Shown here: positions 1 to 29,541 of the stretch, one piece after another
Position numbering within the stretch: the stretch's first letter is position 1
Layout of the letters: each line of letters begins with the position of its first letter
Origin: an uncultured Anaerolineales bacterium
GTDB lineage: Bacteria; Chloroflexota; Anaerolineae; B4-G1; SLSP01
Assembly (NCBI GenBank): GCA_964504195.1
Contig: CAZDDI010000005.1
Span: forward strand, 1,175-65,174
Direction: 5' to 3'
DNA length: 64,000 nt
The notes under the pieces: generated by a model
Told to the model about the DNA's origin: nothing
Databases searched by the model: none
What the model saw: the letters and a program-made list of their open reading frames with translations, nothing else
Position numbers and translations under genes: made by a program

Positions 1-422
1 CGTCCGGAATTACCTTTTCTCAGCAGCGGCCAATCTCCGGCCATGACCAGGGTAGGCATTAACAGCACCAGTAATAAGACGGAAAACACGATTCTTACAC
101 GGCGAGCTGATTTGGTAAACATACGGGACTCCTTTCATAACTTAGAATTTGGTTGAGCAGATACAGCTGGAACACCAGCTTATTTTACCACATAATGCGC
201 AATATATCTGGCAACTTTCGCTTATAACCTTAGGCTACAACTGGCAATTGATGATTAGGTGATAAACTACAGTTTGGCTAAGCATCCAACACCTGCTCGG
301 AGCTGCTGATGATGAAGTTGGTGCGCAGATTGCGTTTGGCGATAGGACACCGCGGATCGGGGCGCGGCCCATCGCCGGTACACGAAAAGGCGCATCACAG
401 CCATCGGCGGCTGTGATGCGCC

Positions 423-1607: not shown

Positions 1608-2069
1608 TGCAAAATAACAGCTAACCCAAGTTGCTACTTATTCGCTAGAATCTTTATAGGACATGGATTCTACGGATAAGAACAAAAAAATCCGCCTAGT
1701 CCGCAGAATCCGTGTCCTGAACCCTGAATCAACCGTGGCAACTTGGATTACATGTGGGATGCACAGAAATTCATTCATAGGTATTGCCACTAAATCCGCT
1801 AAACCTAAAGAGGCGTAAATTGCAGTAAATGTTATTCTCGATTTGCATCGACGACATCCTATGTGATACAATGATTTTAGAATAGTGAATATTCTCCGCT
1901 AATGCTTTGTCAAGCGTAATTTGAGAGGTAATACTGATTATTTTACGGCTAAATTAAAATTTTGCAGTTTCTTGTTTTGCACTTGACAGAACACTTAGAG
2001 ACAAAAGTAACCTTCTAATTCAGTAGGAAACCTTCAAGCCTACAACACTCCAAATAGAACTGGGGAAAA

Positions 2070-2115
2070 GGGGAGGATTTAGAACGCTGTGGCGTTCTAA
2101 ATCCTCCCCTTTTTT
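2070..2115 (+). terminator. Rho-independent terminator (18-bp perfect stem, TGTG loop, T6)
   Basis: GGGGAGGATTTAGAACGC-tgtg-GCGTTCTAAATCCTCCCC followed by TTTTTT. A TTGACA hexamer at 1983-1988 upstream could drive a short transcript ending here. Confidence 0.6.
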
Positions 2116-2128
2116 GTTAGCTGTTTTT

Positions 2129-2352
2129 AATAACAGTAGTTACGCGGTCGAAGCAGGTGGGGCGCACTTTTGACACTAAAACAGCATATTTGCTGCATCA
2201 ATAACGCAATTTGGGTTGGTTTTAAGTGCGGCCCACCTAAGGAATGGGTACGAAATAACTTATCCATTTGAACTCCAAATTGCGCCTGAAACGTCCAGAA
2301 AGCGGGACACTTATTTCGTACTCATTCCTAAACCGCGCAACTACTGTAATAA
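2129..2352. repeat. Nested-palindrome structured element (MITE-like or structured-RNA-like), ~225 bp
   Basis: Outer inverted repeat ACAGTAGTTACGCGGT (2133-2148) / ACCGCGCAACTACTGT (2332-2347). Inner hairpins AGGTGGGGCGCAC (2153-2167) / GTGCGGCCCACCT (2227-2239) and GGAATGGGTACGAAATAA (2241-2258) / TTATTTCGTACTCATTCC (2311-2328). Confidence 0.45.
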
Positions 2353-2552
2353 CTGAAACCAAAGTTTCCCTTTTGAGGTTTTTTCTGACTTTCTGAGAAC
2401 AATTGAAGGAGGTTAGTTAGTTATTTTTCAATGTATCACTTTATTGGATTTGACACAAGTATAACAAAAAAAATCAAAACACTCGATATTTCCCAACCAA
2501 AGACACAACATTTGACATAGAAACCTTAACTACAAATAGAAGAGGAGCGATA

Positions 2553-2759
2553 ATGCAAAACAGTGACTCGTCTTTACAAGATGCTTTATTTCACAATTCA
2601 CTTGTAGAAGTGTTGACTGAAATGGCTAAAAATTACATGCAACAATTAAGATTAGCCAGGAAAGGAAACAGTGTAATTAATAACGACGAAATGACAGGAG
2701 TTAAGGAAAGCAAAGGAATATTTATAACCCAGGTCGAAAACAACGCTGTAAGCTGCTAG
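2553..2759 (+). CDS. Small hypothetical protein (68 aa) in the AT-rich island
   Basis: ORF with a GAGGAG Shine-Dalgarno 6 nt upstream and a TTGACA at 2513-2518. A palindrome CGGGGATC-tagc-GATCCCCG at 2815-2838 lies downstream. No recognisable domain. Confidence 0.3.
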   Translation: MQNSDSSLQDALFHNSLVEVLTEMAKNYMQQLRLARKGNSVINNDEMTGVKESKGIFITQVENNAVSC

Positions 2760-3090
2760 AGGTAAACTCAGTAGATTACAGTTTGCTCGAATTGGATTGC
2801 AATATCCAGCCCAGAACGGGGATCTAGCGATCCCCGTTGAATATTTCGTGATCCACTGAAACTGGCTTGTGCCATAAAATCTTCATCAATTTTACTCACA
2901 CTGGTATCAATGCCTGTGCTACAAGGCTACGCCGGGCAAATCCGGCTTTACAACCGCGTAGACGAAGTGTTGTACTGTAGTCTCGTGATCGCTCACTAGG
3001 CGGGGTATTCATGTCGAATACTTTATGACAATAACCAAGTTTTCAGACAGGGAAGAAGTTTGTCTCAAAATTTCAAAGCATATATAGCAA

Positions 3091-3122
3091 GCACAATGTT
3101 GTTGATAACATTGTGCTTTTTT
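3091..3122 (+). terminator. Rho-independent terminator
   Basis: GCACAATGTT-gttgat-AACATTGTGC followed by TTTTTT, in AT-rich intergenic DNA. Confidence 0.5.
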
Positions 3123-3606
3123 ATAGTTACCCTCTTGTTATCAAAACAAATACATCTGCAATATACTCGAAAATTGAAATAAGAATTAATCATTGATAAC
3201 ATACAGTTGTTTTGTGTAAACAATCATACTAAAACCTCGCAGATTTTAATGTGAAATTGATACGTTACCTTGTCGTTTTGTAACAACAATTTCATCCTCA
3301 AGACTTCCACAGAACTTAGTAGAAATTTCTAGGCTTTCTGGAATTCGTATCAAGCTAACAGACTTAAGATAGAGAGAATTCACTCAAATCGAACAGTGTG
3401 AATAACTCTATTACCAGGAGATGATTTAATGGGAAATGTCTGGGGGTGGCTAAGAGCATCTAGCGTTTTTACGCAGCGTTGCTTTGTGTTGTTGCAAAAA
3501 ACCGTTTTTGGGGCACCCACTATCATTATAGCTGGTGACTTACTAAAATCCTCTATCTGTTCAATCACTGTTAAAAATCAGCATTTGGATGATAAGGCGG
3601 ATTACC

Positions 3607-4221
3607 ATGCAAACCCTGCGTAACACCTTCTCCGAACTCCTGGCCTGGGTGATAGCCGGCCTGCTCGTGGCTTGTATTGTGTGTTGCGTTATTCCTTATC
3701 TCGATACGACCATCCAGGACGCGCACTTGTGGTTTGCTACACCCCGGCCCACGCCGATAGCTGTGGTGCTGGATTTTGCGCCCGAAGACGAAGTGGGCGC
3801 ACGGGAAACGGTATATGCCTGGCTGCAAGCCCAGCAGGACTTAACGGCTCTTCCTACGCTTGATTTGGAAACCCGCGCCTATTACCTCGCTGGCGAAGCC
3901 CCCCGCTTGCGCCAGGGCGACTGGCCGATGTGGTATGGCCTGCGGTATGCCGTCGGCCCCGCTTCAGGCGCCTGGTTGTATTACTGGCCGGGCTGCCCGC
4001 CGTGCCCCGCGGGGTCTGCCTGTATAGCTTTGCCCAACAGCCCCCGCCCGAGCCTAGCCACCTTTGCCTACCCTGGTTTGTCCACCGCGCCCGAGGTGGG
4101 CGCGGCGCTGGCCTGGCGCGAGGAGCAAGCCTATATCGCGGTAATCTGGCCCGGCGTGTGTCCGCCGCCCGCGCCGGAACCCACCCGGCCTTACGTCGGC
4201 CCGACCGGGCCGGGCCAGTGA
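3607..4221 (+). CDS. Hypothetical membrane-anchored Pro/Cys-rich protein
   Basis: ORF 3589..4221. The ATG at 3607 has an AAGGCGG Shine-Dalgarno 6 nt upstream. N-terminal hydrophobic helix. The high-GC region begins here. Confidence 0.5.
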   Translation: MQTLRNTFSELLAWVIAGLLVACIVCCVIPYLDTTIQDAHLWFATPRPTPIAVVLDFAPEDEVGARETVYAWLQAQQDLTALPTLDLETRAYYLAGEAPRLRQGDWPMWYGLRYAVGPASGAWLYYWPGCPPCPAGSACIALPNSPRPSLATFAYPGLSTAPEVGAALAWREEQAYIAVIWPGVCPPPAPEPTRPYVGPTGPGQ

Positions 4222-4233
4222 GCGGAGCCTGCC

Positions 4234-4809
4234 ATGCCCTTACCAGTTACTTCTCCTAGTCCCCTGGTGCGCGCTGCTTGGTCGCCGGATGTCGGCTATT
4301 GGCAACTGGCGCAGAGTAGTGTGCTCCCGGCGTTCAAGCGCCTGGCGGCGGGGAAGCGGGATGCCGACGCACTCCTGTGCGCCGCCTTTAGTCCCCTGGT
4401 ACATTTGGTGTTGGAATTGGCGCTGGAACGGGGCATGGCCGGGTTGCCTAGTTTTTTGCGCGGCTTGACCCGCCCGCCCCGCCCGGAGAGCGCGACCCAC
4501 TGGGTGACGCCCGGCGCGGCCTGGAAATGGTTGCAAACATTACCGGCGGGCGAGGTCGCCGCGGTGTTTGACCTGCGCCCCGGCGGCGGGCCGGAATTGG
4601 ATACCTGGCCCTACGCGCCGCTCCTGGATCAGCAGGGGCGTATCCCGGAATTTCACCAGGAATTGTTACCGCTGGTGTTAAGCGTGTTGCAGGGCTGGGG
4701 CGCGAGTGTATTACTGATACCGCCGGCGCATACCCCGTTGCCCGTAGCACAGGCGCAGTGGGCAGCGTTATGTCAGGCGGCATCACCAGCCGGGAAGCGG
4801 GCCGGGTGA
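4234..4809 (+). CDS. Hypothetical protein
   Basis: 191-aa ORF with a GGAG Shine-Dalgarno, immediately downstream of the previous gene. No recognisable motif. Confidence 0.45.
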   Translation: MPLPVTSPSPLVRAAWSPDVGYWQLAQSSVLPAFKRLAAGKRDADALLCAAFSPLVHLVLELALERGMAGLPSFLRGLTRPPRPESATHWVTPGAAWKWLQTLPAGEVAAVFDLRPGGGPELDTWPYAPLLDQQGRIPEFHQELLPLVLSVLQGWGASVLLIPPAHTPLPVAQAQWAALCQAASPAGKRAG

Positions 4810-5159
4810 TACGCATTGCCCGCAAGCCGGGGTATGCGGCACGCGCTGCGGGTTTTCGTAACGGGCTATTTCGTGCCGCATACCCCCGCAATGCAGCGGT
4901 GGGGCTAAGCAGCGGAATATCAATCATTTTTACCCGTTTATTCGCGGTTTTTACGCCCATAACCGGCTTGTGGGCCACCTTGAGGAAGCGGAGCGTGACC
5001 CGTCTCGTGGGGGAGTGGCGGCTGGGTGGGGGGAATGCGGCACAAGGACAAGTTAGCCGTAATTGCCTGGTTTGTGCCGCATACGACCCCGGTTATTACC
5101 CGGGTTGACCCCGGTTGTACGGCGGCTCAGACACCGGGTTTCGACCAATGGCGACCCGC

Positions 5160-6010
5160 GCAAGCACGTCGGGGGTGACGCTAATAGGCAATGGTTATGC
5201 CCGGTTGCTACCCAGATAGCCCGCGCCAACGTCTAGGGTTACGCTGATGGGCTGCGGCTATTCGCGGTTGCCACCGGCGGCTCATGATAGTGCCTGGCGT
5301 CACACGGGCCAAGTCAACCCTGGTTTCCAGTGGCATCCCATGTAAACACGCCGGGGGATAGCGCTGATAGGCAATGGTTATGCCCGGTTGCCACCCGGAC
5401 AGCCTGCGATAACGCCCAGGTGGCTTTGATAGGCAACGGTTTTTCACCGGCGCCCCATGTAAGCACGCGGGGGATGGCGCTGATGGGCCGCGATTATTCG
5501 CCGTTGCTACCCGGATAGCCCGCGCTAATGCCGGGGGTGGCTTTGATAGGCAATAGTTTTTCACTGGCGGGCCGCGCGCGCGTTCTGGGTTACGCTGATG
5601 CGCCACGGCTATTCGCGGTTGCCACCGGCGGCGCATGATACTGCCTGGCGTCACACGGGCCAAGTCAACCCTGGTTTCCAGTGGCATCCCATGTAAACAC
5701 GCCGGGGGATAGCGCTGATAGGCAATGGTTATGCCCGGTTGCCACCCGGACAGCCTGCGATAACGCCCAGGTGGCTTTGATAGGCAACGGTTTTTCACCG
5801 GTGCCCCATGTAAGCACGCGGGGGATGGCGCTAACGCCGGGGGATGCGCTGATGCACGGTGGTTATTCGCGGTTACCACCAGCGGCCCGCGCGCGCGTCC
5901 AGCGTAACGCTGATGCGCCGCCGCTATTCGCGGTTGCCACCCGGATAGCCTGCGCTAACGCCCAGGTGACGCTGATAGACAACGGTTTCTCATGGGCGGC
6001 CCGCGCGAGC
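5160..6010. repeat. Complex tandem repeat array: ~13 degenerate 50-65-bp units organised into a ~351-bp higher-order repeat (about 1.7 copies, ~5233-5830)
   Basis: Recurrent unit GGGG[AT]T[AG]GCGCTGAT[AG]GGCAA[CT]GGTT.T.CCCGGTTGCCACCCGGA[CT]AGCC.GCG.TAACG. The identical spurious ORFs starting at 5330 and 5681 show the 351-bp period. No unique spacers, so it is not CRISPR-like. Confidence 0.7.
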
Positions 6011-6053
6011 GCCGGGGCCGTCCGGCTCAGTACCCTGTACAGGAGGTGCAAAG

Positions 6054-6488
6054 ATGCACCATGATGCCCCGCAGTTCATTCGGTATCTCGTCGCCCTCAC
6101 CGGGGGCGATCCGTGCCTGACCCAGATTCCGCGCGGGAAACATCCCCTGCGCATCCACACCCAGCGCGTGGGCGCTGTCCGGCTGGTCACCGTCGCGCCG
6201 GGTAGCGACCCCTTGCCCGAGGTGGATGAAACCGCGCTCAGCCCGCTGGTGGCCGCGCCCGGCACGGTGCTCTTGCGGGGGATCATCGCGGGGGTGCGCG
6301 ATACAGCCGCGGCGGACCGCGCGCTGTGGCTGACGCTGCCCGGCGCGGGGGCCGTGCCGCTGGTGGCAGCGGATGCGGACATTGCCGTGACCCTGCGCGG
6401 TTTGCTCCGCCGGCCCGTGATTGTGCGCGGCGTGTGCGCGGCACAGGGGATTGTTGTTCACATGGTGCAGGCGGAGGTCGCGCCGTGA
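6054..6488 (+). CDS. Hypothetical protein (144 aa)
   Basis: Strong AGGAGGT Shine-Dalgarno 7 nt upstream of the ATG, immediately after the repeat array. GC-rich codon usage. Confidence 0.55.
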   Translation: MHHDAPQFIRYLVALTGGDPCLTQIPRGKHPLRIHTQRVGAVRLVTVAPGSDPLPEVDETALSPLVAAPGTVLLRGIIAGVRDTAAADRALWLTLPGAGAVPLVAADADIAVTLRGLLRRPVIVRGVCAAQGIVVHMVQAEVAP

Positions 6489-6659
6489 GCAAGGCCAAGG
6501 GGCAACGAAAAAGCGCCGAAAGGTTCGGCGCTTTCAGAAGGTCCGTGCGTGGCTATCCGCACGCCAGGGTCAAGCTGACCCGCCTGGGCCCCCCCAGGCT
6601 TGGGCGGCTTTGAGACAGACTAACAGTTTTAGTATACCAGACTCAAGGAGGTACATGCA

Positions 6660-7184
6660 ATGCGAACTAAGATCGGCAGCGGGCTATTCCTGGCCCTCGT
6701 GGTGTTACCCCTGCTCATCGGCTATGTGACTGCGCCGTGTGATGCCTGGGGGGTGCCCGTAGTGTTGTCCCCGTACCGGCTGCGGCAGGCGCGCTATCTT
6801 GCCCAGGTTACGCGCTGGACGGACGCGGTGGCCGAAGTCGGCGCGACGCTAGACACCCTGGCCGCCGCGCCCGCGCCGCAGTCCACCAGCGCCGCGTTCC
6901 GCCTGGCGGAACAGGTTGGGCAAGCCGCTCAGCAGTTGGCGACCCTCGCGCCACCCCCCGCGCCGGCGGAGTATAGCCTGCTGGCGCTCCTGCTGGAACA
7001 AACGCGGGACACCTATGCGTATGCAGCGGAGCAATTGCTGGTCTTCTATGGCACCCAAGACCCGCAAGCGCTGGCCGCGGCGCACGTCTCGCTGGATTTA
7101 GCCGCGGCGGCCCTGGCGGAGGCGCGGGCCGGCAGTGCCGGGCTGACCTATCCGCTGTGCCGCGAGGTGTGGCATGAGCGGTGA
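6660..7184 (+). CDS. Hypothetical secreted protein (N-terminal signal-like hydrophobic segment)
   Basis: AAGGAGGT Shine-Dalgarno. MRTKIGSGLFLALVVLPLLIGYVTA signal-like N-terminus. Ala-rich. Confidence 0.55.
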   Translation: MRTKIGSGLFLALVVLPLLIGYVTAPCDAWGVPVVLSPYRLRQARYLAQVTRWTDAVAEVGATLDTLAAAPAPQSTSAAFRLAEQVGQAAQQLATLAPPPAPAEYSLLALLLEQTRDTYAYAAEQLLVFYGTQDPQALAAAHVSLDLAAAALAEARAGSAGLTYPLCREVWHER

Positions 7185-8418
7185 GCCGCCTGCCGCCGCG
7201 GCGGAAGCGCCGGCCATTGAACTAGAACTGCTCCGCGCACAACTGCGCAGTTGCCAAATGCGGCTGACCGGGCAGACCCGCGCCTATCAGCAGGCGGTGG
7301 CGGCGCTGCAGCCCTATCTGGAAACGCTGTTCCCCCAGGTATTCCCGCAGGCGTTGGCTCAGGGCTTGTCGGTGGTCACGGCGGGCGAGTATTGTTACCA
7401 GTACCACCTGCACGGCACTGATCCGCGGGAGCTCTTTGCCGGCGCGGAGGCGTCCCCGGCGGCGGCCCCCACAGCGGCGGCGGGGGCAGACGCGGGCGTG
7501 CCCCTGTCCGGCGACGCGGTGAAGTTCTTGTTCGCCGCGGGGCAGCAGGTGGTGTCCACCGCGATCAAAGCGCAGTGGGCGCAGCTCGCGGGCAAAGCGG
7601 TCAGCACGGCGAAGAACACGGTGCTGCCGGAACTGCTGGATAAAGGCTTACTGCGCGTGGAGCACATCCCGGCCCCCCGGTATCTCACCGGCTACGCCAG
7701 CGATGTCTGTTATGTGTTGACCGCAGCCGGGCGCGCGGAGCATCAGCGGCGGTTCAGTTGCGAGGCTGTGGACTACGCGGCCGCGTATGCCCCGCACAAA
7801 TCACCGGAAGCCTGGTGGCAGGTGCGCGCAGTCCAGGCGTTGGTGTTAGCGGGCAATACGCTGCCCGGCAACCAGCGCTGCACCTACGCGGTTTACGACC
7901 CCACCGGCGAGCCGGAAACAGCGGCGGAGGCCGGCTTTCAGCGGCGCTATGGGCAGAGCGAACCGGATGTCATTGTGGTCGTCACTTCGCTGTCACAGGG
8001 ACAGCCGAGCCGTATCGCGGTGGAGTCCGAGCGCGGCACTTACAACCCCACGCGCCTCAAGGCCAAGTTGCTCAAGAACTTGCAAGACTACGGCGCGGCA
8101 GGCTTCAGCGGCTGCTACTACATCGCCAACAACGGCGATACCGCTAGCAGCATCGCCGGGGCGCTCACCAAACTGCGCGCCGACCTCAAAGCGCACCCGG
8201 AAGCCGTGAGTACGCGCGGGTTTCTGGCCCTGTTCACCCTGGATGCGCTCAAAGACGCCTGGCTGCCTACGCCGCACTTCATTGACGCCGAGTTCTTCGA
8301 CCGGCAGACGCGGCGCGTGAGCGACCGCTGGCCGGCAGACGCGGCCAAGCCGGAGCGCTACTTCCGCTTTGCGCCCAAGGGCCAGGATGAAGGTGGCGGG
8401 GAGCGGGGGATGGGGTGA
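7174..8418 (+). CDS. Hypothetical protein, possibly a replication-relaxation / PD-(D/E)xK-like nuclease-fold protein (tentative)
   Basis: 414-aa ORF that overlaps the upstream gene by 11 nt (translational coupling). Segment EPDVIVVVTS...RIAVESERGTY resembles a PD-(D/E)xK core. Sits in a module with replication genes. Confidence 0.45.
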   Translation: MSGEPPAAAAEAPAIELELLRAQLRSCQMRLTGQTRAYQQAVAALQPYLETLFPQVFPQALAQGLSVVTAGEYCYQYHLHGTDPRELFAGAEASPAAAPTAAAGADAGVPLSGDAVKFLFAAGQQVVSTAIKAQWAQLAGKAVSTAKNTVLPELLDKGLLRVEHIPAPRYLTGYASDVCYVLTAAGRAEHQRRFSCEAVDYAAAYAPHKSPEAWWQVRAVQALVLAGNTLPGNQRCTYAVYDPTGEPETAAEAGFQRRYGQSEPDVIVVVTSLSQGQPSRIAVESERGTYNPTRLKAKLLKNLQDYGAAGFSGCYYIANNGDTASSIAGALTKLRADLKAHPEAVSTRGFLALFTLDALKDAWLPTPHFIDAEFFDRQTRRVSDRWPADAAKPERYFRFAPKGQDEGGGERGMG

Positions 8419-8489
8419 GGGGGAGGCAAGCCGCTGAGCCGCCTTTTCGCCTTCTCGCTGATTCACATTTTCGACAAGGAGAGTATCCC

Positions 8490-8696
8490 ATGAATGTAGA
8501 AACACTCTTGCTGTACGGTTTACGGCTGTGGCTGGCCGGGGGCATGCACCTCGGACAATTTTTGCTCCAGGTGGGGCCGTTCGTCCTGGCCGGAGCGGGG
8601 TTTGCGGGCTGGTGGCTCACCCAACGGCCCGCGCCCCGTGCCCCGCGTCGCTGGGAAGAGGTCGCCACCGACGGCCCGGCGTTCATCTTGCGGTAA
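8490..8696 (+). CDS. Small membrane protein (68 aa)
   Basis: Internal ATG of ORF 8415..8696 with a CAAGGAGAG Shine-Dalgarno. Two hydrophobic helices. Confidence 0.4.
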   Translation: MNVETLLLYGLRLWLAGGMHLGQFLLQVGPFVLAGAGFAGWWLTQRPAPRAPRRWEEVATDGPAFILR

Positions 8697-8724
8697 CCCC
8701 GCAGTTTAAGGAAAGGAGCGGCTC

Positions 8725-8913
8725 ATGTGCGTACCGAAGTTTTCGTGGGGCCGGCGCTGGGCCGGCCGCCTGTGGCGCGGCGGCGGACGCCTGCTGATGC
8801 GACTGGCGTTGGGGTGTATCACGTTGGGCGAGGCGCTGGCCGATTGGGGCTTGCGCTGCGCCATTTGGGGGAGCGGGGATGATCAACAGCAGCCGGGAGG
8901 CCCGGCATGTTGA
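8725..8913 (+). CDS. Small Arg/Trp-rich hypothetical protein (62 aa)
   Basis: AAGGAAAGGAG Shine-Dalgarno upstream. Overlaps the start of the next gene. Confidence 0.3.
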   Translation: MCVPKFSWGRRWAGRLWRGGGRLLMRLALGCITLGEALADWGLRCAIWGSGDDQQQPGGPAC

Positions 8914-10154
8914 CGCCGCGGCTGATGCAGCAGGCGCTCGCTGACCGGCTGGCGGGGCAAGCCGTGCCGCCCGTCAATCTGGCGCAGTGGAGCGAACCCT
9001 GGGCCAGCTGTTGGCGCGCGCTGGACGCCGCCGCGCCTGACGCACCGGCGCATACGGCCTTGTTCCAAGCGTTGGCCGACCGGCCCGACCGCGACCGGCT
9101 CATCGAAGCGCTCTTCAAACTGCAACCGGGCGCGCCAGCCCAGTATCCCACCCTGCAAGAACTGGCGGAGGGCCTGGCCCCTATTGCCTGGCTGTGGCCG
9201 GGCTGGATTCCGCGCGGGATGCTGACGCTCTTTGGCGCGGTGCCCGGCGTGGGCAAGTCGCTGGTGGCGCTGGATTTGTGCCGGCGCATTATCCACGGGA
9301 CCTCCTTCCCCGATGCCGCCCCCGTGGCTGCGCCCGGCGGGCCGGTGCTCTATGTGGACGCCGAGGCCGTGCCGCAGATCACGCACGAACGCGCCGCGGC
9401 CTGGCAGTTGGATATGCGCCGCCTGTACCTGATGTTGCCCGCTGGCGATGCGCTGCTGGACTTTGGGCGGGCCGCCGACCGCGACCGCCTGGTGGAAATG
9501 GTGTATACCCTGCGCCCGGCGCTGGTCATCGTAGACAGCCTGTCATCCGTGACGAGCAAGAGCGAGAACGCCGTCGAGGATGTGCGCGCGCTGTTGGGCT
9601 TTTTCGCCGGGTTAGCGCGGGAATACGCGCTGGGGCTGGTGCTGATCCACCACGCGCGCAAGCGGGGCCTGACGCTGGGCGGGGCCCCGCTGTTTACGCC
9701 CATCACGCTCGACGATTTCCGGGGCAGCGGCCACATCGTCGCGATGGCGCGCTCGGTGTTGGGCTTATCTGTGGTGCAGAATGGGCCGCAACCGGACAGC
9801 AATGGCCCGCGCCAACTGGAAGTCATCAAGAGCAACCTGGCGCGTGTCCCCGCGCCACTGGGCTTCGACCTGGTGGACGTGCCGCCGGCGGGCGTGGCAC
9901 TCCAGTGGGGCGCAGCGCCGCAGCCCTGGCAAGCACCGACCAAGTTGGATGAGTGCCGCCTGTGGTTGGCGACCTGGTTGCGCGAGGCGGCTGAGCCGTT
10001 AGCACCGAAGGAGATTGTCGCGGCCGCCCAGAGTCTGGGCTTCAGCCGCGCGATGGTGTTCCGGGCGCGGGAAGCGTTGGGCGAGCAGGTCCGCAACACG
10101 TCCGGGCGGCGAGATCCGCAGAACTTGTGGGGGTGGAACGGGGAGCAGTCCTAA
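8907..10154 (+). CDS. RecA-fold P-loop NTPase of the RepA/AAA_25 type (mobile-element replication or helicase-loader-like)
   Basis: Walker A GAVPGVGKS. Walker B-like LVIVDSL. LIHHARK motif typical of phage, plasmid and ICE RepA-like ATPases. Confidence 0.7.
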   Translation: MLTPRLMQQALADRLAGQAVPPVNLAQWSEPWASCWRALDAAAPDAPAHTALFQALADRPDRDRLIEALFKLQPGAPAQYPTLQELAEGLAPIAWLWPGWIPRGMLTLFGAVPGVGKSLVALDLCRRIIHGTSFPDAAPVAAPGGPVLYVDAEAVPQITHERAAAWQLDMRRLYLMLPAGDALLDFGRAADRDRLVEMVYTLRPALVIVDSLSSVTSKSENAVEDVRALLGFFAGLAREYALGLVLIHHARKRGLTLGGAPLFTPITLDDFRGSGHIVAMARSVLGLSVVQNGPQPDSNGPRQLEVIKSNLARVPAPLGFDLVDVPPAGVALQWGAAPQPWQAPTKLDECRLWLATWLREAAEPLAPKEIVAAAQSLGFSRAMVFRAREALGEQVRNTSGRRDPQNLWGWNGEQS

Positions 10155-10290
10155 CAGTCTCAAGAGTTCACTGTATTGGCACACCCCCCTGGGGCGCGCC
10201 CGGCGTTGAAACGCTGAGACAGTGAGATAGTTGCGACAGTAAGACAGTGGCGGGGGTACTGTCTCACTGTCGCAAGAGTTCACTGTTTTG
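10155..10290. promoter_or_regulatory. Cluster of at least 7 ACAGTG/CACTGT hexamer motifs with direct and inverted repeats; putative operator, iteron or origin region
   Basis: Direct repeat CAAGAGTTCACTGT at 10161-10174 and 10273-10286. GACAGT appears three times at 10218, 10235 and 10243. Inverted GAGACAGTGAG / CTCACTGTC. Confidence 0.35.
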
Positions 10291-10424
10291 ACCCCCACCG
10301 TCCGCTACCAGGGGTGTGCCCATGGGCGGGAGACAGTGACCTGCCGCGCGTTCGGCGTGGGAGGCGTTGTCGCGCGCCACCTGCGCTCGACGGCGCAGCA
10401 TGGCCCCCACACAGCTACCCCGGC

Positions 10425-10451
10425 TAATAATAATAATAATAATAATAATAA
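10425..10451. repeat. (TAA)9 microsatellite in an AT-rich tract ~48 bp upstream of the primase start codon
   Basis: Perfect trinucleotide repeat in an otherwise ~68% GC context, followed by TTTATATCTATTTATCTATCCC. Confidence 0.9.
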
Positions 10452-10498
10452 TTTATATCTATTTATCTATCCCTATCTCGCTCAGAAAGGCCCGGCCT

Positions 10499-11560
10499 AT
10501 GCCTGCTATTACCTGCCTCCCGACCCTGATTGCCACTATCAAAGCCCGGCTCGACCTGGCCGAACAGGTCATCATTCCCGACCTCGGCTCGCCGCAGACT
10601 CGCGGCCAACGGTTGGCCTGGCGCTGTCCGTTCCATGCGGATCATAATCCCTCGCTGTATCTCACGCCCGACGGCCAGGCGTACCGCTGCTTCGGCTGCG
10701 GCGCGCGGGGCGACGCCTTCACCTGGCTCATGGCGCGGCGCGGTTGGCCGTTTCGGAAGGCGCTGACCTACCTGGCCGACCTGACCGGGGTGGCGCTGGA
10801 TGACAACCGATCCCCGGCGCAAGCGGCGAAAGTCCCCGCACCGCCCAATGTGCAACCCCCTGGCGCGACCTGGCAAGCACGGGCGCGGCTATTGCTGGCG
10901 CGGGCGCAAGCGTTGTTGGAGGAGGACGCGGGCGCGGTAGGCCGGGCTTATTTGCAGGCACGAGGCTTGCAAGCACCCACCTGGCAGACGTGGGGCTTGG
11001 GCTGGTGTCCGCGCGAGGTGTTCGAGCCGCCGGAACGGTGGGGGTTGACGGGGAAGCAGATTTATCTACCGCGCGGTGTAGTGATCCCCCACTTTGTCGC
11101 TGGTGACCTGTGGGCGTTGAAAGTACGCCGCTTTGTGGGGGATACCCCGGTAACTGCTGACCAGGGCGGCAAGTACGGCGGGCCGCGCGGGGGACAGATT
11201 GCGCTCTACGGCGTGGACTTGCTGCGCGGCGGCGACCGCCCGTTGTTCCTGGTGGAAGCCGAGTTGGATGCGCTGCTGCTCTGGCAAGCAGCGGGCGACC
11301 TGGTGGACGCAGCGGCCCTGGGCAGCGCCAGCCGGACGTTGCCCGCGCGCTGGCTGGCGGCGTTGTTGCCGTATCCGCGCATCTATGCCGCGCTGGACGC
11401 CGACGGCGCGGGGACGCTGAACGCGGCGCGGCTGGCGGAGATCTCGGCGCGGATTACGTCGGTGCGGGTGCCGGCCGGCAAGGATATGACGGAGTATGGG
11501 CAAGGAGGCGGGGACGTGAGGGAGTGGGTGGAGATGGTGATGGGAATTGCAGAAAGATGA
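10499..11560 (+). CDS. DnaG-like DNA primase (CHC2 zinc finger + Toprim), mobile-element type
   Basis: CPFHADHNPSLYLTPDGQAYRCFGCGARGD is a CHC2 zinc finger. Downstream EAELDALL...ALDADGAG is Toprim-like. The annotated ORF start at 10367 would read through the (TAA)n run as Ile9; the ATG at 10499 is preferred. Confidence 0.75.
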   Translation: MPAITCLPTLIATIKARLDLAEQVIIPDLGSPQTRGQRLAWRCPFHADHNPSLYLTPDGQAYRCFGCGARGDAFTWLMARRGWPFRKALTYLADLTGVALDDNRSPAQAAKVPAPPNVQPPGATWQARARLLLARAQALLEEDAGAVGRAYLQARGLQAPTWQTWGLGWCPREVFEPPERWGLTGKQIYLPRGVVIPHFVAGDLWALKVRRFVGDTPVTADQGGKYGGPRGGQIALYGVDLLRGGDRPLFLVEAELDALLLWQAAGDLVDAAALGSASRTLPARWLAALLPYPRIYAALDADGAGTLNAARLAEISARITSVRVPAGKDMTEYGQGGGDVREWVEMVMGIAER

Positions 11561-11575
11561 GCGTAGTAAACCTGC

Positions 11576-12589
11576 TTACGCAGAACCGTTCCCCTGAGTA
11601 ATTCGACCGGCTACGTCTTGGTAGTGAGCCGCCGCTGCCGGATCGCCGACTGCCATGTACGCTTCGACCAGCCGCTTCAGGATGATGCGCCGGCAGGGCT
11701 GGTTGTCGGTGCGAGTCGTGATCTCCAATCCGGCGTGCAGGTGTTCCAGCGCCAACTCAAGTTGCCCCAGGGTCAGATAGGTCGCGCCCAGATTGCAGCG
11801 GATGACACCTTTTCCGGGCAAATCCGCCTCGGCCTGTGCAATCTCCAACGCTGCAAGGAAGTAGGGCAAAGCCGCTTGTGGGTGTTGATCCCGGAGTAGC
11901 GCGGTCCCCAGAAAATTGGCAGCGGATTTGATGCGCGGTCGGTCGCCGGCGGTGCGCGCTACGGCCAGCCCGGCGGTGAAATGCTCCGCCGCTGCGCCGT
12001 AGTCCGCAGCCTGTAAAGCGATCCGCCCCCGCAGGATGTGTACATCGGCGATGACCTCGGCCTCGCCGCGTTGCTCGGCCAACTGCTGTGTTTCTGGCAA
12101 CCAGGCCGTGGCCTTTTCCGATTTCCCCAACAGAAACCAGGCTTGCGCCAGATCCATGAACACGCGCGCTGCCGGAGCGGGGTAGTGCAGCGCGCGCACC
12201 AGGGCAGACGCAGCTTCGAGACAGCGCGCCGTCTCGGCATACTCGCCCAGGCGCATACACACTTCGGAGAGGTGCTGCTGCAACCAGAGCGTCAACAACG
12301 GATCATCCGTAGGCGCGCGTTGGACGAAATACTGCAAACACGCGCGCCAGGGCGCCCATTGCCCCTGATAGATCATGTAGCGATGCAGGCTGTGCGCCAG
12401 CGCCGCGCCTACGCTGCGGGTGGCGACGTGGGCGGCGCAGTGCTGTAATGTGTGGAGGATATTGGCTTGCGCCTGAGTCAACGCGGCGGGATCGGCCTGA
12501 TGCGCGTGGATGTAGGTTTGCCAGTACGCGCCGGCGCGGGCGATGCTGGCCTGGTAGACCTGCTGGCGTTCTGTGAGGGTTTCCATCAT
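11576..12589 (-). CDS. TPR-repeat protein, the C-terminal partner of a split STAND NTPase
   Basis: Multiple TPR-like helical repeats. Start MMETLTERQ overlaps the upstream stop in an ATGA arrangement. The ORF's listed start at 12670 lies inside the upstream gene. Confidence 0.6.
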   Translation of the reverse strand: MMETLTERQQVYQASIARAGAYWQTYIHAHQADPAALTQAQANILHTLQHCAAHVATRSVGAALAHSLHRYMIYQGQWAPWRACLQYFVQRAPTDDPLLTLWLQQHLSEVCMRLGEYAETARCLEAASALVRALHYPAPAARVFMDLAQAWFLLGKSEKATAWLPETQQLAEQRGEAEVIADVHILRGRIALQAADYGAAAEHFTAGLAVARTAGDRPRIKSAANFLGTALLRDQHPQAALPYFLAALEIAQAEADLPGKGVIRCNLGATYLTLGQLELALEHLHAGLEITTRTDNQPCRRIILKRLVEAYMAVGDPAAAAHYQDVAGRITQGNGSA

Positions 12590-14076
12590 ATGATAGGTTC
12601 GACGTCTGGCGCAGGCTGCACCAGCTCCGAGAGGATGAAGTTGCGCGTGAGCGGGTGGATGCTGTAGCACTTCTGGAGCGCATCCCCGCCGATTTCCAGC
12701 AGCGAGAGCCGCGCCAGCTCCCGGACCCCGGCGAGGGTTTGACGCTCATCCAGCCCACCGATGGCGACCAGGGCCTCCCACGGCCCGCCGGTCGTCGCCA
12801 GCAAGGGCAGGCTCAACAGGAGCTGGCGCGCGTCCGCTGAAAGCAGCTCCCAGGCCGCCCAGTAGATGAAGCGGTAGAAGGTCTCCAGATCGCCCCGTGC
12901 CTCGGCGATCTCCGCCAGCACTTGCGCCAACGGGCGCAGCGCCGCCTGCCCCACCACCAGTTTGAGCGCCAAGGGATTGCCGCCGGTCGCCTGATAGATG
13001 CGCGCCAGAATGGCATCATCCGCCTCCTGCAAAGCGCGCTCTCCCCGCTCCTGCGCGTGATAGCGCAACAACGCCGTCGCCGCAGCCGGCGGCAGCGCGC
13101 CCACATGCACGGAGGTGGCCTGCTCGAAGGTATCCAGGCGGTAGCGGCTGGTGATGAGCACCTTACTAGGGCCGGTAAGTGCCCAGAGTTCCTGCGCTAG
13201 AGCGCGATAATCGGCGGCGGTTTCCAGATTGTCCACCACCACCAGGTAGGGCTGCGCGTGGAGCAGCGCGTGCAAGGCTTCTCGCTTCTTGCCGCTGGGC
13301 CAGGCCGTGAAATGGGGGTTTCCGGTCTGCCGCGCGATGCTATTGAGCAGTTCATCCACGGTGAGCGCGGGCGCGGTAGAGAGCTGCACCTCGCTCCAGG
13401 CAAAGACCTGGCGCTGTGCAGTCTCCCAAACCAGGTGGGCGAAATCGCCTGCCTCTAGCGCTGCCAGCGCGACTGCGCGCGCCAGGGCGGTTTTGCCCAT
13501 GCCGCCCAGGCCATCCAGCACCACGAAGCGATGGCGCTCCGGCGCAGCGAGGAAATCGCGCGCGCGGGCCAGCAACGGCTCAACGCCGAACAGGCGGGTG
13601 TAGGTGGGTGGGGGCAGGTGTGCGCGCCAGGCGGCGGTTGGGGATTGGGGAGCGCTGTGCGCCCCGGCGATGCTATGATTTTCCCATTGGCACAGGAGCG
13701 CAGCGACTTGCTCAATACCTTGAGCCAGGTCGCGGTAATATTGCGCGCGGCTGACGTGCAACCGTGACGGGATGTCTTTGGGCGCGCTGCCCTGTTGGTA
13801 GGTTTGGGTGAGCGCCGTGTAGACGCGCAGGGCCGGGGCAGTATTCGCGGTATTGTCCGGCGGTTTCAACAGCGCCAACGCCTCATCGAGCAAAGCCTGC
13901 ACCAGCTGCCCGACTAGCACGGGTGTTACCTCTAGCCCTTCCGGCAACCGTCGCTGCACGAGATGCAGAGAGGCCAGCTCGCAAGCACCCAGAAAGGGCA
14001 GATCGTGATAGTGCTGCAAGGCCGCTTTGACGCGCGCCGCATCCGAAACCGCTGGTTGATGGGGTGGCAAATTCAT
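12586..14076 (-). CDS. STAND-class NTPase (NB-ARC/AAA domain) with an N-terminal helical domain
   Basis: Walker A VLDGLGGMGKTALA, followed by an NB-ARC-like arm. Confidence 0.65.
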   Translation of the reverse strand: MNLPPHQPAVSDAARVKAALQHYHDLPFLGACELASLHLVQRRLPEGLEVTPVLVGQLVQALLDEALALLKPPDNTANTAPALRVYTALTQTYQQGSAPKDIPSRLHVSRAQYYRDLAQGIEQVAALLCQWENHSIAGAHSAPQSPTAAWRAHLPPPTYTRLFGVEPLLARARDFLAAPERHRFVVLDGLGGMGKTALARAVALAALEAGDFAHLVWETAQRQVFAWSEVQLSTAPALTVDELLNSIARQTGNPHFTAWPSGKKREALHALLHAQPYLVVVDNLETAADYRALAQELWALTGPSKVLITSRYRLDTFEQATSVHVGALPPAAATALLRYHAQERGERALQEADDAILARIYQATGGNPLALKLVVGQAALRPLAQVLAEIAEARGDLETFYRFIYWAAWELLSADARQLLLSLPLLATTGGPWEALVAIGGLDERQTLAGVRELARLSLLEIGGDALQKCYSIHPLTRNFILSELVQPAPDVEPII

Positions 14077-14990: not shown

Positions 14991-17801
14991 ATGCCAGAAG
15001 AGAAATCGCAGATCACAGCTGTTTGCCCGGTTGAACCAACGCCGTTCGTGGGGCGGACGGAGGCGCTGAACACCCTGCGCGCGGCGCTGAAACTGACCCT
15101 GGCCGGCCAGGGTCAGGTGCGCTTTGTGGCGGGCGAGGGCGGCAGCGGCAAGACTACCTTGGTGACGGAATTTGTGCGCCGCGTGCAGGCGCGTCGCGCC
15201 GACCTGGTCGTGGCGCTGGGTGCCTGCAATGCGCAGACCGGCATCGGCGACCCGTACCTGCCGTTCCGCGAGGTGTTGCGCCTGCTCATCGGCGATGTCG
15301 AAGGGCAGCAGGCGCAGCGCGCTTTGACGCCGGAGAACCGCCGCCGCTTGCAAGAGTTGACGCAGCTGTCGGCGCAGGCTTTGGCGGAAATCGGCCCGGA
15401 TTTGATCGGCGTCTTCCTGCCCGGCGCCGGCCTCCTGGCAAAATTGGGCGCCTTCCTGGCTGATAAGGCCGGGTGGCTGGAGGCGCGCAAGGAAAAAGCC
15501 GCCGCGGTAGCACCCGAAGATATTGACGAAAGCCGCATTTTCGAGCAATATGTGGCGGTGCTGCGCCAGCTGGCCGCGCAACATCCGCTGATTTTGGTGG
15601 TGGATGATTTGCAGTGGGTGGATCAGGCCTCGGCGAGCTTGTTGTTCTACCTGATCCGGCAGCTGCGCGAAAGCCGCGTGCTTATTGTGGGGCTGTACCG
15701 GCCGGCGGAAGTGACTTTGGGGCGCGCGGGGCAGCGCCATCCGCTGGAGAAAATCCTCAACGAAGCCAGGCGCTATTATGGCGATCTGGTGCTGGATCTG
15801 GATCAGGCCGGAGCCGCCGAGGGCCGCCAGTTCGTTGAGGCGTTTTTGGATACGGAACCTAACCGGCTAGGGGCGGATTTCCGGGCGGCGTTGTTCCAGC
15901 ACACCGGCGGCCATCCATTGTTCACGGTGGAGCTGTTGCGCCATTTGCAGGAACGCGGCGACCTGGTACATGCGGCCGACGGCGCCTGGGTCGAGAGCGC
16001 GCGGGTCAGCTGGGATACATTGCCCGCGCAGGTCGAGGGCGTGATCGAAGAGCGCGTAGCGCGCCTGAGCGATGAACTCAAGGAAATTTTGTTGACGGCG
16101 AGTGTGGAAGGCGAGGAGTTCACGGCGCAGGTCGTGGCGCGGGTCGAGAGCTTGCCCGAAAGACGCTTGCTGCGGCGGCTGTGCCAGGAACTTGAACAGC
16201 AACATCGTTTGATCGGGCAACAAGGCGAGATGGAGGTGGGCGCGCACATTCTGGCGCGCTTCCGTTTCGCCCACATTCTTTTGCAACAACATTTCTATCA
16301 CCTTACGGGCGCAGAATGTCGCTCGTTACATGGTGAAATCGGCGAGATGCTGGAAGAGTTTTACGCCGGACAGACGGATGTCATCGTTTTGCAGCTGGCC
16401 CGGCACTTCGAGGCAGCGGGACTGTGGGGCAAAGCCGTGGCTTACCGGCTGCGGGCGGGCGCGCAAGCGCGGCAGTGTTACGCCTGCGCGGATGCAATCG
16501 CACACTACGAGCGCGCGCTGACGTTGGCAGGGAAGCTCGCGCCCGTGGATAGCCTGAGACCGCGTTTACAAGCATTGACCGGGTTGGGGGAATTGTTGAC
16601 CATTACTGGGCAATATGAACCGGCCCGCGCACGTCTGGAGGCGGCCTTGGCGGCGGCGCGGGAGGTGGGCGACCGCGACCAGGAGGCGCTAATCTGCCGC
16701 TGGCTGGCGCGCAGCTATGAAAACGCCGGCGACTATCCCACCGCGTTGGAATGGGTCCAGCGCGGACTGGCGGCCTTGCAGGGTCGGGAGACGGCGGAAG
16801 CTGTGCAATTGCGGCTGCTCGCCGGGCTGGTGCAGCTGCGGCGCGGGGAAATGGAGATAGCGCTGGAACAGGCCGAGCTCGCGCTACGGCTGGCGCAGGC
16901 TTTGGGCGACCAGTATGCTCTGGGGCGCACCTATGTGTTCTTGGCGGTGCTGACCTTGCAGCGCGGGCAGAATCAACATTCGGCGGGACTGGCGCAGCGC
17001 GGCCTGGACTGCTACACCCAGGCCGGCGACCTGGCGGGCCAGGCTACGGCGCACAATCAGATTGCCAATGCCCGGTTCAATAGGGGGGAGTGGTCAGCGG
17101 CCGCGGCGAGCTATACCCAGGCGCGGGATACCTTTCAGCGCATTGGCGACTTGCACAACCACACCATTGCCCAGAACAACCTCGGCGAGATTGCGCTCAA
17201 TCAAGGCCGGCTGGAGGATGCGTTGGCTGCGTATCATGAGGCGCTTCATTTGCAGGAGAAACTTCCCGACAGATCGCCCTATATTCTGGGCATTTTGCAC
17301 AACAACCTGGGCGCGGTGTACGTGCGCCGGGGCGAACTGGCGGCGGCCCGCGAGCACTTGCAAGCGAGCCTGGCGCACTTCGAGGCGGCCGGGTCGCGCG
17401 ATATTCTCCCGGAAGTCTATCGCCATCTGGGCGAGATTGCCTGGCAAGAGGGGGCTATGCCGGAGGCGGAAGCGGAAGCCCAACGCTCCCTCGCGCTGGC
17501 GCGGGAGTTGCAAGCCGAAAACGAGGCGGGGATCACGCTGCGCCTGCTGGGTGAACTGGCATTGGCGCGACAGGATTATGCCGTCGCTGCGGCGCACCTC
17601 CGCGAGAGCCTGGCGATTTTGCTCAAGTTGGGAGAGACCTATCAGGCGGCCCGCACGCGCCTGGCGCTGGCGCGCCTGGCCCTGGCCGTGGGCCGCCCGG
17701 CCGACGCCCGCGTTGAACTCGATGCCTGCGAGCCGGTCTTCGCGCAATTGGATGCCGCGCCCGACCTCGCGGCGGCGCGGGAACTGCGGGCGGGAATTTA
17801 G
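14991..17801 (+). CDS. Large ATP-binding regulatory protein, AAA_16 ATPase + TPR array (STAND-like)
   Basis: Walker A AGEGGSGKTTL. LILVVDDLQWVD Walker B. Long TPR-rich C-terminus of 936 aa. Confidence 0.7.
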   Translation: MPEEKSQITAVCPVEPTPFVGRTEALNTLRAALKLTLAGQGQVRFVAGEGGSGKTTLVTEFVRRVQARRADLVVALGACNAQTGIGDPYLPFREVLRLLIGDVEGQQAQRALTPENRRRLQELTQLSAQALAEIGPDLIGVFLPGAGLLAKLGAFLADKAGWLEARKEKAAAVAPEDIDESRIFEQYVAVLRQLAAQHPLILVVDDLQWVDQASASLLFYLIRQLRESRVLIVGLYRPAEVTLGRAGQRHPLEKILNEARRYYGDLVLDLDQAGAAEGRQFVEAFLDTEPNRLGADFRAALFQHTGGHPLFTVELLRHLQERGDLVHAADGAWVESARVSWDTLPAQVEGVIEERVARLSDELKEILLTASVEGEEFTAQVVARVESLPERRLLRRLCQELEQQHRLIGQQGEMEVGAHILARFRFAHILLQQHFYHLTGAECRSLHGEIGEMLEEFYAGQTDVIVLQLARHFEAAGLWGKAVAYRLRAGAQARQCYACADAIAHYERALTLAGKLAPVDSLRPRLQALTGLGELLTITGQYEPARARLEAALAAAREVGDRDQEALICRWLARSYENAGDYPTALEWVQRGLAALQGRETAEAVQLRLLAGLVQLRRGEMEIALEQAELALRLAQALGDQYALGRTYVFLAVLTLQRGQNQHSAGLAQRGLDCYTQAGDLAGQATAHNQIANARFNRGEWSAAAASYTQARDTFQRIGDLHNHTIAQNNLGEIALNQGRLEDALAAYHEALHLQEKLPDRSPYILGILHNNLGAVYVRRGELAAAREHLQASLAHFEAAGSRDILPEVYRHLGEIAWQEGAMPEAEAEAQRSLALARELQAENEAGITLRLLGELALARQDYAVAAAHLRESLAILLKLGETYQAARTRLALARLALAVGRPADARVELDACEPVFAQLDAAPDLAAARELRAGI

Positions 17802-17849
17802 CCACGAATTTCGCAAATTAGCACCAAGTTTATCTTGAGGAGGATAACC

Positions 17850-25321: not shown

Positions 25322-25324
25322 CGT

Positions 25325-25368
25325 GCTGCGTACTGCGTAAATTCCGGATTACGCAGTACGCAGTACGC
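25325..25368. repeat. Palindromic extragenic element, GTACTGCGTAA family, copy 1
   Basis: GCTGCGTACTGCGTAA-attccgga-TTACGCAGTACGCAGTACGC lies directly after the stop codon. A related copy is at 62358-62401. Confidence 0.5.
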
Positions 25369-25410
25369 AATAGCCGACACGCAACTTCCCCTAGAGAGGT
25401 AATCCTAGCC

Positions 25411-29482: not shown

Positions 29483-29520
29483 GGACATGGCTCAAAACCC
29501 TGGAGAAGTCAGTTTGACAC
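29483..29520 (+). mobile_element. Solo terminal inverted repeat related to the IS at 36929-38532
   Basis: GGACATGGCTCAAAACCCTGGAGAAGTCAGTTTGACAC is ~34/36 identical to the reverse complement of that IS's right IR. The tip faces outward, to the left. Confidence 0.6.
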
Positions 29521-29541
29521 TTTCTGAAATAAGGAAATCTT

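Follow-up and report, generated by a model that had tools for sequence, protein, structure and literature searches.

In several well-known replicons a single polypeptide combines origin recognition with a hexameric helicase. The P4 alpha protein with its ori/crr sites, the large T antigen of polyomaviruses and the E1 protein of papillomaviruses all follow this plan, and their origins present short opposed repeats on which two rings assemble. These proteins belong to the superfamily 3 (SF3)/AAA+ helicases. Here, we consider a locus in a 64-kb stretch of DNA from an uncultured Anaerolineales bacterium (henceforth, the window), in which a helicase gene (8907-10154) and a primase gene (10499-11560), both on the + strand, enclose a spacer dense in short repeats. 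We regard this region as probably being the replication module of an uncharacterised family of mobile elements of the Anaerolineae (Chloroflexota), with an origin served by a self-loading initiator-helicase. The origin-binding domains and repeats of the P4, polyomavirus and papillomavirus systems are unrelated to those of the window, and P4 alpha contains the primase too, which in the window is a separate gene.

In function, the closest described system is the Pri-Rep-ori module found in pathogenicity islands of Staphylococcus aureus (SaPIs) and phage-inducible chromosomal islands (PICIs); in ancestry, it is RSF1010 RepA together with the phage primase-helicases. In the SaPIs, the C-terminal winged helix of the Rep helicase binds iterons of 5-6 nt that are placed directly downstream of rep, two or more to each side and in opposite orientations, and no loader is known (PMC9371898). 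The module of the window resembles this system in that its helicase is likewise predicted to be the initiator by means of a C-terminal winged helix, in the opposed sets of short iterons immediately downstream of the helicase open reading frame (ORF), in the adjacent primase and possibly in an association with small mobile islands. However, SaPI Rep is described as being of the SF3 type (PMC9371898), whereas the helicase of the window has the RecA fold of superfamily 4 (SF4), which places it outside the SaPI Rep family. The order in the window is helicase, origin and primase, its iterons are tandem units of 8-9 nt as against the 5-6 nt of the SaPIs, and its arrays flank a C-tract/G-tract centre (with TTTTAAG) where the SaPI origin has an AT-rich block. 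Integrase, repressor and packaging genes were not found beside the module in the window, integrases being present in the more distant relatives L141 and L143 (L numbers denote the loci compared).

RSF1010 (IncQ) provides the closest solved helicase, RepA, and similarly couples its own helicase and primase to an origin with iterons and inverted elements. In that plasmid, RepA can be loaded only once a separate initiator that binds the iterons, RepC, has melted oriV (PMC8965321). In contrast, a RepC-like gene is not present here and the helicase carries its own winged helix; further, the primase of the window is DnaG-type by profile and that of RSF1010 is RepB'. Sequence identity to this system is about 20%. 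Phage primase/helicases have a similar ATPase core (PHROG 239; 23-26% identity to those of Microbacterium, Arthrobacter, Idiomarinaceae and Salicola phages), but only this core aligns, amounting to 40-66% of the window helicase. Finally, in the classical iteron plasmids (Rep/pi/TrfA) a dedicated non-helicase winged-helix initiator binds directly repeated sites of about 17-22 bp, which neighbour DnaA boxes and a DNA-unwinding element rich in A+T. Since Pfam, PHROG and NCBIfam scans of the window products found no separate Rep gene and the repeats are opposed 8-9-mers, the module is not of this kind. Our literature searches found no description of such a module in Anaerolineae.

The helicase, the primase and the opposed arrays between them

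The 415-residue product of 8907-10154 had been called an AAA_25/RepA-like ATPase in an initial annotation made from the DNA sequence, and the match to AAA_25 is indeed unequivocal (E=4e-32, 111.7 bits against a cut-off of 27). Profile searches with its family recover RSF1010 RepA (1g8y, E=2e-9) as the best solved relative, followed by RadA and T7 gp4. An AlphaFold2 model based on 64 homologues (predicted local distance difference test, pLDDT, 90.2) is made up, from the N- to the C-terminus, of a helical domain, a RecA core and a winged helix, and its top Foldseek matches are the RSF1010 RepA entries 1g8y, 1nlf and 1olo (TM 0.70-0.74 on the target, 0.73 for 1g8y). The winged helix spans residues 346-410, with helices at 346-360, 367-376 and 381-394 and a wing formed by 395-397 and 408-410, all modelled at a pLDDT of about 90-96. 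The NTPase motifs are conserved in the form of a GxGKS Walker A, a DS Walker B and characteristic His and Arg residues; G114, G116, K117, S118, D210, S211, H248, H249, R251, K252 and R302 are invariant across the 64 homologues. The ATPase core also matches phrog_239 (DNA primase/helicase; E=4e-24), and AAA+ and SF3 families were unmatched in the Pfam and PHROG scans; by fold and by profile the relatives are of the RecA type, namely RSF1010 RepA, RadA, T7 gp4 and DnaB. The protein belongs to the RSF1010 RepA-like/AAA_25 group of RecA-fold SF4 helicases, and from its sequence and model we propose that it is a hexameric helicase and a candidate initiator-helicase. A 2022 paper states that AAA_25 proteins have no described function (PMC8965321).

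The call of a DnaG-like primase likewise stands: the 353-residue product of 10499-11560 combines a CHC2 zinc ribbon (Zn_ribbon_DnaG, E=1.5e-16, 60.4 bits against a cut-off of 24.9) with a Toprim domain (Toprim_2, E=1.5e-6, 28.9 bits against 22.1), and matches PHROG DNA primase families and, through its zinc ribbon, the PDB entry 1d0q. Against the dnaG equivalog TIGR01391 it scores 96.3 bits, with a cut-off of 283.6, over the N-terminal 161 of 414 profile positions, and it is devoid of the C-terminal DnaB-binding (helicase-binding) domain. As the score is far below the equivalog cut-off and this domain is absent, we judge it to be distinct from the host DnaG. It follows the helicase directly in about 50 loci. 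Its start is most likely the ATG at 10499, because this aligns with the N-termini of the homologues. Two upstream alternatives were rejected; the TTG at 10367 of the mechanically called ORF and the position 10400 chosen by the gene caller would each place an (AAT)9 tract inside the coding sequence. With this start, the spacer between the two genes measures 344 bp (10155-10498) and not the 130 bp first ascribed to it, although the cluster of motifs described within it is real.

This cluster contains six exact ACAGTG/CACTGT hexamers between 10169 and 10338, where at least seven had been claimed, and the spacer holds nine copies of the pentamer core ACAGT/ACTGT (five on the + and four on the - strand). 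The 64 kb as a whole have 24 such hexamers, no more than shuffled sequences give; despite this ordinary overall count, their clustering in the spacer is far beyond chance (six in 170 bp against about 0.064 expected; Poisson P ~1e-10). Both direct and inverted arrangements, as originally reported, are present: an inverted repeat of 18 nt at 10231-10248 and 10258-10275 (94%) and a direct repeat of 37 nt at 10151 and 10263, offset by 112 nt. These resolve into two origin-like units. Unit 1 (10152-10249) has a left arm at 10152-10175, AACAGTCTCAAGAGTTCACTGT, a C-tract/G-tract centre at 10176-10214 and a right arm at 10215-10249, GAGACAGT GAGATAGT.GCGACAGT AAGACAGT. Unit 2 (10258-10339) is a tandem partial duplicate of it at the same 112-nt offset, with a left arm at 10258-10286, a centre at 10287-10329 and one right-arm unit, GAGACAGTGA, at 10330-10339. 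About 85 GC-rich bases then lead to a tract of pure A+T (10425-10473), (TAA)9 and then TTTATATCTATTTATCTAT, which, in this genome with its G+C content of about 68%, is a candidate DNA-unwinding element. A corresponding A+T window (38-40 of 40 nt, lying 66-92 nt before the primase ATG) is also found in L004, L007, L008, L009 and L010.

The wider design of these arrays emerged when the interval from helicase stop to primase start was compared across 46 non-duplicate loci. These spacers are typically 100-180 bp long and follow a common plan. Their left side has two to four tandem top-strand units, such as ACTGTCTC AAGAGTCTC AAGAGTTTACTGT; the centre reads TTTTAAG, then a C run, a few bases and a G run; and the right side repeats the left units as their reverse complement, three to six times in tandem, as in GAGACAGT GAGACTCTT GAGACAGTT, after which come the ribosome-binding site and ATG of the next gene. 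The units are spaced at 8-9 nt and, as a rule, differ in number between the two arms. In 32 of these 46 helicase-primase loci the reverse-complement units lie strictly to the left and the forward ones strictly to the right; most of the loci that depart from this pattern are those with expanded spacers in the clade of the window itself. A wider test took the 160 nt after the helicase stop in 72 loci, with 1440 random windows from the same loci as controls. Strictly opposed arrays with a top 6-mer count of at least four occur in 38/72 loci as against 24/1440 random windows, and with a count of at least five in 24/72 as against 3/1440; in the short spacers the mean top 6-mer count is 4.4 versus 2.0 in shuffles. 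The early description of the cluster as resembling an origin or operator is strongly supported by this 72-locus comparison.

The expanded spacers of L004 and L009 reach 1.2 and 1.4 kb, are filled with GAGACAGT and CTCAAGAGTYCACTGTAT, and retain the A+T tract before the primase. In L004, a called 268-residue 'gene' (11358-12164) lies wholly inside the expanded iterons, which there form higher-order repeats of about 120 nt with GAGACAGT-type units, and is most likely a false gene call. Elsewhere, tandem arrays of other heptamers come after the main opposed array, or stand in its place, behind the helicase stop, namely GGAAGAT in L045, L049 and L050 and CGTAAAT in L064.

Linkage and co-variation of the helicase and the iterons

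In at least 13 loci without a downstream DnaG-type primase, including contigs from IMG/VR, the array is retained directly behind the helicase stop; hence, it travels with the helicase and not with the primase. In each unit a lineage-specific triplet stands before a semi-constant core, A[CT][AT][GC]T, and this triplet co-varies with one residue of the winged helix, A382 in the window, which comes directly after a conserved 'GFSR' where the third or recognition helix (381-394) begins. A C before the core (GGCAC, TGCAC and GTCAC types) is seen in 10/10 loci with Arg at this position but in 1/51 loci with another residue, and conversely, Arg occurs in 0/50 loci without the C. Other pairings are Asp with CAG or CAA, Ala with GAG, Ser, Gly or Thr with TGG, and Pro with TAG or GAG.

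A natural variant bears on the same question. L144 has the same upstream genes and primase, but in its form of the module (L144 5637-9931) the helicase is a DnaB-type protein of 435 residues without a winged helix, and a separate 546-residue protein with two similar 'HTWG...' segments occupies the position of the iteron spacer before the primase. We infer that L144 represents a natural replacement of the fused initiator-helicase by a helicase and a separate factor. Given the linkage of the array, the co-variation of residue and triplet, and this exchange, the iterons appear to be read by the helicase's own C-terminal winged helix.

The domains, the architecture and conservation of the repeats, their linkage to the helicase gene and the protein-DNA co-variation are direct observations. 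By analogy with the SaPI Rep proteins, a mechanism can be proposed for an origin that lies directly after the helicase stop and comprises two opposed tandem sets of 8-9-nt iterons (of the GAGACAGT type here) around a C-tract/G-tract. The winged helices of the helicase would bind the iterons on both arms, such that two oppositely oriented rings could nucleate on the origin with no need for a separate loader or initiator. The DNA would then melt at or near the centre or at the AT-rich tract, and the adjacent DnaG-type primase would prime both strands for the host polymerase. A more far-reaching proposal, which we advance tentatively, is that the fusion of a RecA-fold SF4 (AAA_25) helicase to a winged helix, with a code relating one residue to a triplet (Ala-GAG, Arg-GGC/TGC, Asp-CAG, Ser/Gly/Thr-TGG), may define an undescribed self-loading class that is convergent with the SF3 initiator-helicases of SaPIs, P4 and small DNA tumour viruses. 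This class might then be the common replicon of Anaerolineae phages, plasmids and islands that bear defence genes and have no integrase nearby, some of them inserted in comM.

Among the alternatives, the one that fares best, though we consider it unlikely, is that the arrays are an operator, bound by the helicase tail or another regulator, which represses or times the downstream gene (here, the primase), with the origin situated elsewhere, for instance at 4826-6017. It is favoured by the position of the right arm, which in most loci stops 10-30 nt short of the next gene's ribosome-binding site and ATG, and by a second, larger repeat region upstream in the window, with conserved inverted repeats there in the relatives; moreover, origin and operator functions often coincide in plasmid replicons. 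However, the array persists whichever gene follows the helicase, multi-unit opposed arrays with 8-9-nt spacing that grow to over a kilobase in L004 and L009 would be unusual for an operator, and the large upstream array is absent from the close relatives. A scan of the + strand of the spacer also found no sigma-70-like promoter, which is weak evidence, because Chloroflexota promoters may not fit that consensus. As the right arm abuts the start of the next gene, an operator role may coexist with the function as an origin.

It is more improbable still that the opposed arms are primarily a hairpin, either as a terminator, attenuator or processing site in RNA or as a primase entry site in single-stranded DNA like ssiA/ssiB of RSF1010. 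The arms are complementary and change together between lineages, and single-stranded DNA from 10148 to 10345 folds at -46.9 kcal/mol (z = -4.8), with none of the shuffles as good. A precedent is also at hand: according to PMC8567376, RSF1010 RepB' primes on two 40-nt inverted repeats within oriV. On the other hand, a hairpin requires neither tandem repetition at 8-9 nt within its arms nor unequal numbers of units in them, yet both are the rule; nor does it account for the co-variation of the unit sequence with a protein residue, or for arrays in loci lacking a DnaG-type primase. An RNA element as the main explanation was rejected, with RNAalifold yielding a consensus of just five weak pairs on 30 spacers (-2.8 kcal/mol) and Rfam no family match in the whole window.

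The conserved block and its mobility

The module extends beyond the helicase and primase. The initial annotation had placed it at 6054-11560, and while the genes in this interval are real, the conserved block begins at about 3589. Its close relatives are L004, L006, L008 and L009 (helicase identity 73-77%), and L144 and L147 share the upstream genes too; in L147 the stretch expected to hold the helicase and primase is masked as N and is uninformative on them. The relatives preserve the order of the homologues of 3589-4221 and 4234-4809, followed by those of 6054-6488, 6660-7184 and 7174-8418. Nucleotide homology among them starts just upstream of the homologue of 3589-4221 and ends at the primase stop codon, beyond which the flanks differ even between close relatives.

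All these genes lie on the + strand. Between 6054 and 11560 they are co-oriented and tightly packed, as had been noted, with overlaps of 11 nt (7174/7184) and 7 nt (8907/8913), and the five products other than the helicase and primase are hypothetical proteins in the full sense, being unmatched in Pfam, PHROGs, NCBIfam and PADLOC. PADLOC returned just generic TPR matches and DnaG-like domain matches for the genes of the module. The first conserved gene (3589-4221) encodes a protein of 210 residues with a hydrophobic N-terminus, for which Pfam, PHROG, NCBIfam and PADLOC gave no match; homologues with 48-53% identity occupy the same position in L004, L006, L008, L009 and L144. Two further genes without family matches, 4234-4809 (191 residues, 41-44%) and 6054-6488 (144 residues, 46-47%), have homologues in these five loci and in L147. 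The product of 6660-7184 (174 residues, 64-67%) has a hydrophobic N-terminus, likely a signal peptide or membrane anchor, and hydrophobic segments thus mark three products of the block, the third being the 68-residue protein of 8490-8696, which has a 77-residue counterpart at the same position in L004 and L144. The 62-residue ORF at 8725-8913, which overlaps the helicase start, was called by gene finders; as a real gene it is doubtful, and no homologue was found in the related loci.

The largest of the upstream proteins, encoded by 7174-8418 (414 residues), belongs to a family of 45 homologues, none with a Pfam domain, whose named members are all from Anaerolineae. In its AlphaFold2 model (pLDDT 77), a winged helix (113-182) and an alpha/beta domain resembling the PD-(D/E)xK fold (211-355) accompany a long coiled coil, and there are weak Foldseek matches to the nucleases PaqCI, MspJI and BamHI and to the winged helices and regulators of the PadR type. 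D265, E284, E286 and R287 are invariant or nearly so in the family, and the protein is plausibly a DNA-binding nuclease-like protein.

Two non-coding features lie between the second and third conserved genes. The first consists of two inverted repeats of the hairpin type, at 4826-4889 and 5028-5089, which stand 201 nt apart and have arms of the GGTATGCGGCAC type. L004 (6674-6748 and 6884-6941) and L009 (6667-6736 and 6887-6930) have the same layout with arms of a different sequence, GGTATGAAGGAAAAA, and about 200-213 nt between them. Such a pair could be a paired operator, a recombination site or a site of single-strand initiation. The second, a 0.9-kb array (5150-6017), comprises 13-14 degenerate units of about 58-63 nt with the core GCTGATAGGCAAnGGTTATGCCCGGTTGCCACC, organised in a higher-order repeat of 351 nt, whose copies at 5221-5481 and 5572-5832 are 95% identical. 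It has no Rfam match and is specific to the window, the relatives having there a spacer of about 350 nt without an array.

The attribution of the module to mobile elements is upheld by its relatives, which occur beside integrases, FtsK, ParA/ParB and terminases, in several copies per metagenome-assembled genome (MAG) and on IMG/VR contigs. The helicase family has more than 240 detectable members, with the named ones nearly all from metagenome bins of Anaerolineae or other Chloroflexota. Three copies per MAG are present in DAIUDK01 (L006, L008, L059), DAOQVR01 (L015, L054, L058) and CAZLNX01 (L033, L035, L041), and two in DIXA01 (L022, L037) and JAXGQB01 (L049, L050); 14 IMG/VR contigs carry members with 37-52% identity. 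A 62% relative, L141, has an FtsK/SpoIIIE gene to either side of it. One flank also holds an integrase, the other DUF1064, AAA_24 and another integrase, and genes of ordinary metabolism come next. Of two relatives at 53%, L142 lies between ParA and two ParB genes, and L143 is accompanied by TerL, TerS, an actin-like segregation protein, FtsK and an integrase. No full-length relative of the helicase, and none covering the full winged-helix architecture, turned up in curated collections of plasmids and phages, where the best matches have 31% identity over 41% of the helicase or no more than 26% over the ATPase core.

In L008 and L009 the module is bordered on the left by a 5'-truncated comM/yifB gene, of which the 3' half remains. 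The cut lies at the conserved ...GEISLAHRGVLFLDE... region, and some 570 nt of low-GC DNA separate it from the module; this junction bears the signature of insertion into comM. No significant similarity was found between the left end of L009 and positions 1-4000 of the window. A comparable interruption of comEC was entertained for the window, where an ORF at 423-1607 (-) matches only the C-terminal part of ComEC, and was dropped because no N-terminal ComEC or comM fragment was found elsewhere in it. Between this ORF and the module lie 2 kb of gene-poor DNA (1620-3590) with 35-45% G+C as against about 68% for the genome, containing terminator-like hairpins at about 2062-2106 and 3091-3123 and a 68-residue ORF (2553-2759) with a good ribosome-binding site; this segment may be the left end of the element.

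Several points weigh against our interpretation. Regarding mobility, the family is mobile, but this particular copy may be an active replicon, an integrated element, as first suggested, or a remnant: the window has no tRNA genes, no integrase was found among the scanned ORFs and no relaxase or partition genes beside the module, and instead of att sites a search for direct repeats of at least 16 nt across 1-30 kb recovered just chance-like pairs flanking it. As for the origin, the arrays of the window are mixed in polarity because of the tandem duplication, and this copy could be partly decayed, since unit 2 has a single right-arm iteron. The AT-rich tract lies beside the arrays and not between them, unlike in the SaPI origin; the short, ancestral-looking spacers are without a strongly AT-rich stretch, and about a quarter of the helicase homologues lack a clear array. 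The association of Arg with C (Fisher P = 1e-10) involves about six lineages and is uncorrected for their shared ancestry. Lastly, iteron binding, helicase activity, origin firing, self-loading, melting and bidirectional initiation are what we infer from the architecture.

The idea that the helicase and primase are chromosomal housekeeping genes, which the initial annotation had named as the outcome that would overturn its reading, and that the repeats are incidental, hardly merits credence: the block 3589-11560 is syntenic in several related MAGs, but it stands in different flanks and in several copies per MAG, its relatives are linked to integrases, terminases and partition genes, the primase is far from a cellular dnaG in score and domain content, and the helicase is not DnaB.

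Flanking regions and significance

To the right of the primase, the relatives have different and mostly defence-like genes: STAND NTPases of the NB-ARC/TPR type in the window and L004, type III CRISPR-Cas genes in L009, CHAT and a ThiF/E2/JAB/YukD set in L144, and a KAP NTPase, CHAT and NACHT in L147. In the window, genes for a TPR protein and an NB-ARC STAND NTPase (11576-14076, - strand) converge on the primase stop with a gap of 15 bp, and an AAA_16-TPR protein is encoded at 14991-17801.

Farther to the right are a protein of 2237 residues with beta-helix/NosD/InlB repeats (17835-24548), which includes a 300-nt repeat at 17994-18293 and 19545-19844 with 95% identity, and a serine-rich protein of 1397 residues (25180-29373; NF033849). 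An island of 39% G+C (29500-36840) codes for an AMP-binding enzyme, an asparagine synthase, an NAD synthase, two GDSL lipases and an acyltransferase, and in a second low-GC segment (39501-41134) a malate dehydrogenase gene is interrupted by a DDE transposase gene (40040-41134, - strand), leaving only its first 173 residues encoded; these two segments are either recent foreign DNA or an assembly chimera. A Tad/Flp-type pilus cluster (44118-58284), with CpaB-like, ParA-like TadZ and RcpC proteins, two T2SSE ATPases and two T2SSF proteins, points to ordinary chromosomal DNA in the remainder of the window.

Replication modules that include an origin are in themselves an ordinary find on mobile elements. 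What is new, and widespread in an understudied phylum, is the fusion of an SF4 helicase to a winged helix, the opposed arrays that accompany it and the apparent code relating the two. If our reading is true, helicases that serve as their own initiators have arisen not in the SF3 lineage alone, represented by SaPI Rep, but in the RecA-fold SF4 lineage too. The expanded iteron regions also expose a problem for annotation, in that they are called as protein genes, as with the 268-residue call in L004.

Anaerolineae are abundant in sludge, sediments and digesters, and almost no genetic tools exist for them; we know of no characterised replicon from the group. The segment from helicase through origin to primase (8907-11560) is, at about 2.7 kb, a compact and well-delimited candidate replicon with dozens of natural specificity variants, which could seed shuttle vectors or compatibility groups. 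For the biology of these bacteria, the conserved block may, in addition, mark the edge of variable, defence-related stretches in which genes for STAND NTPases, CHAT proteases, ubiquitin-like systems and type III CRISPR-Cas abound.

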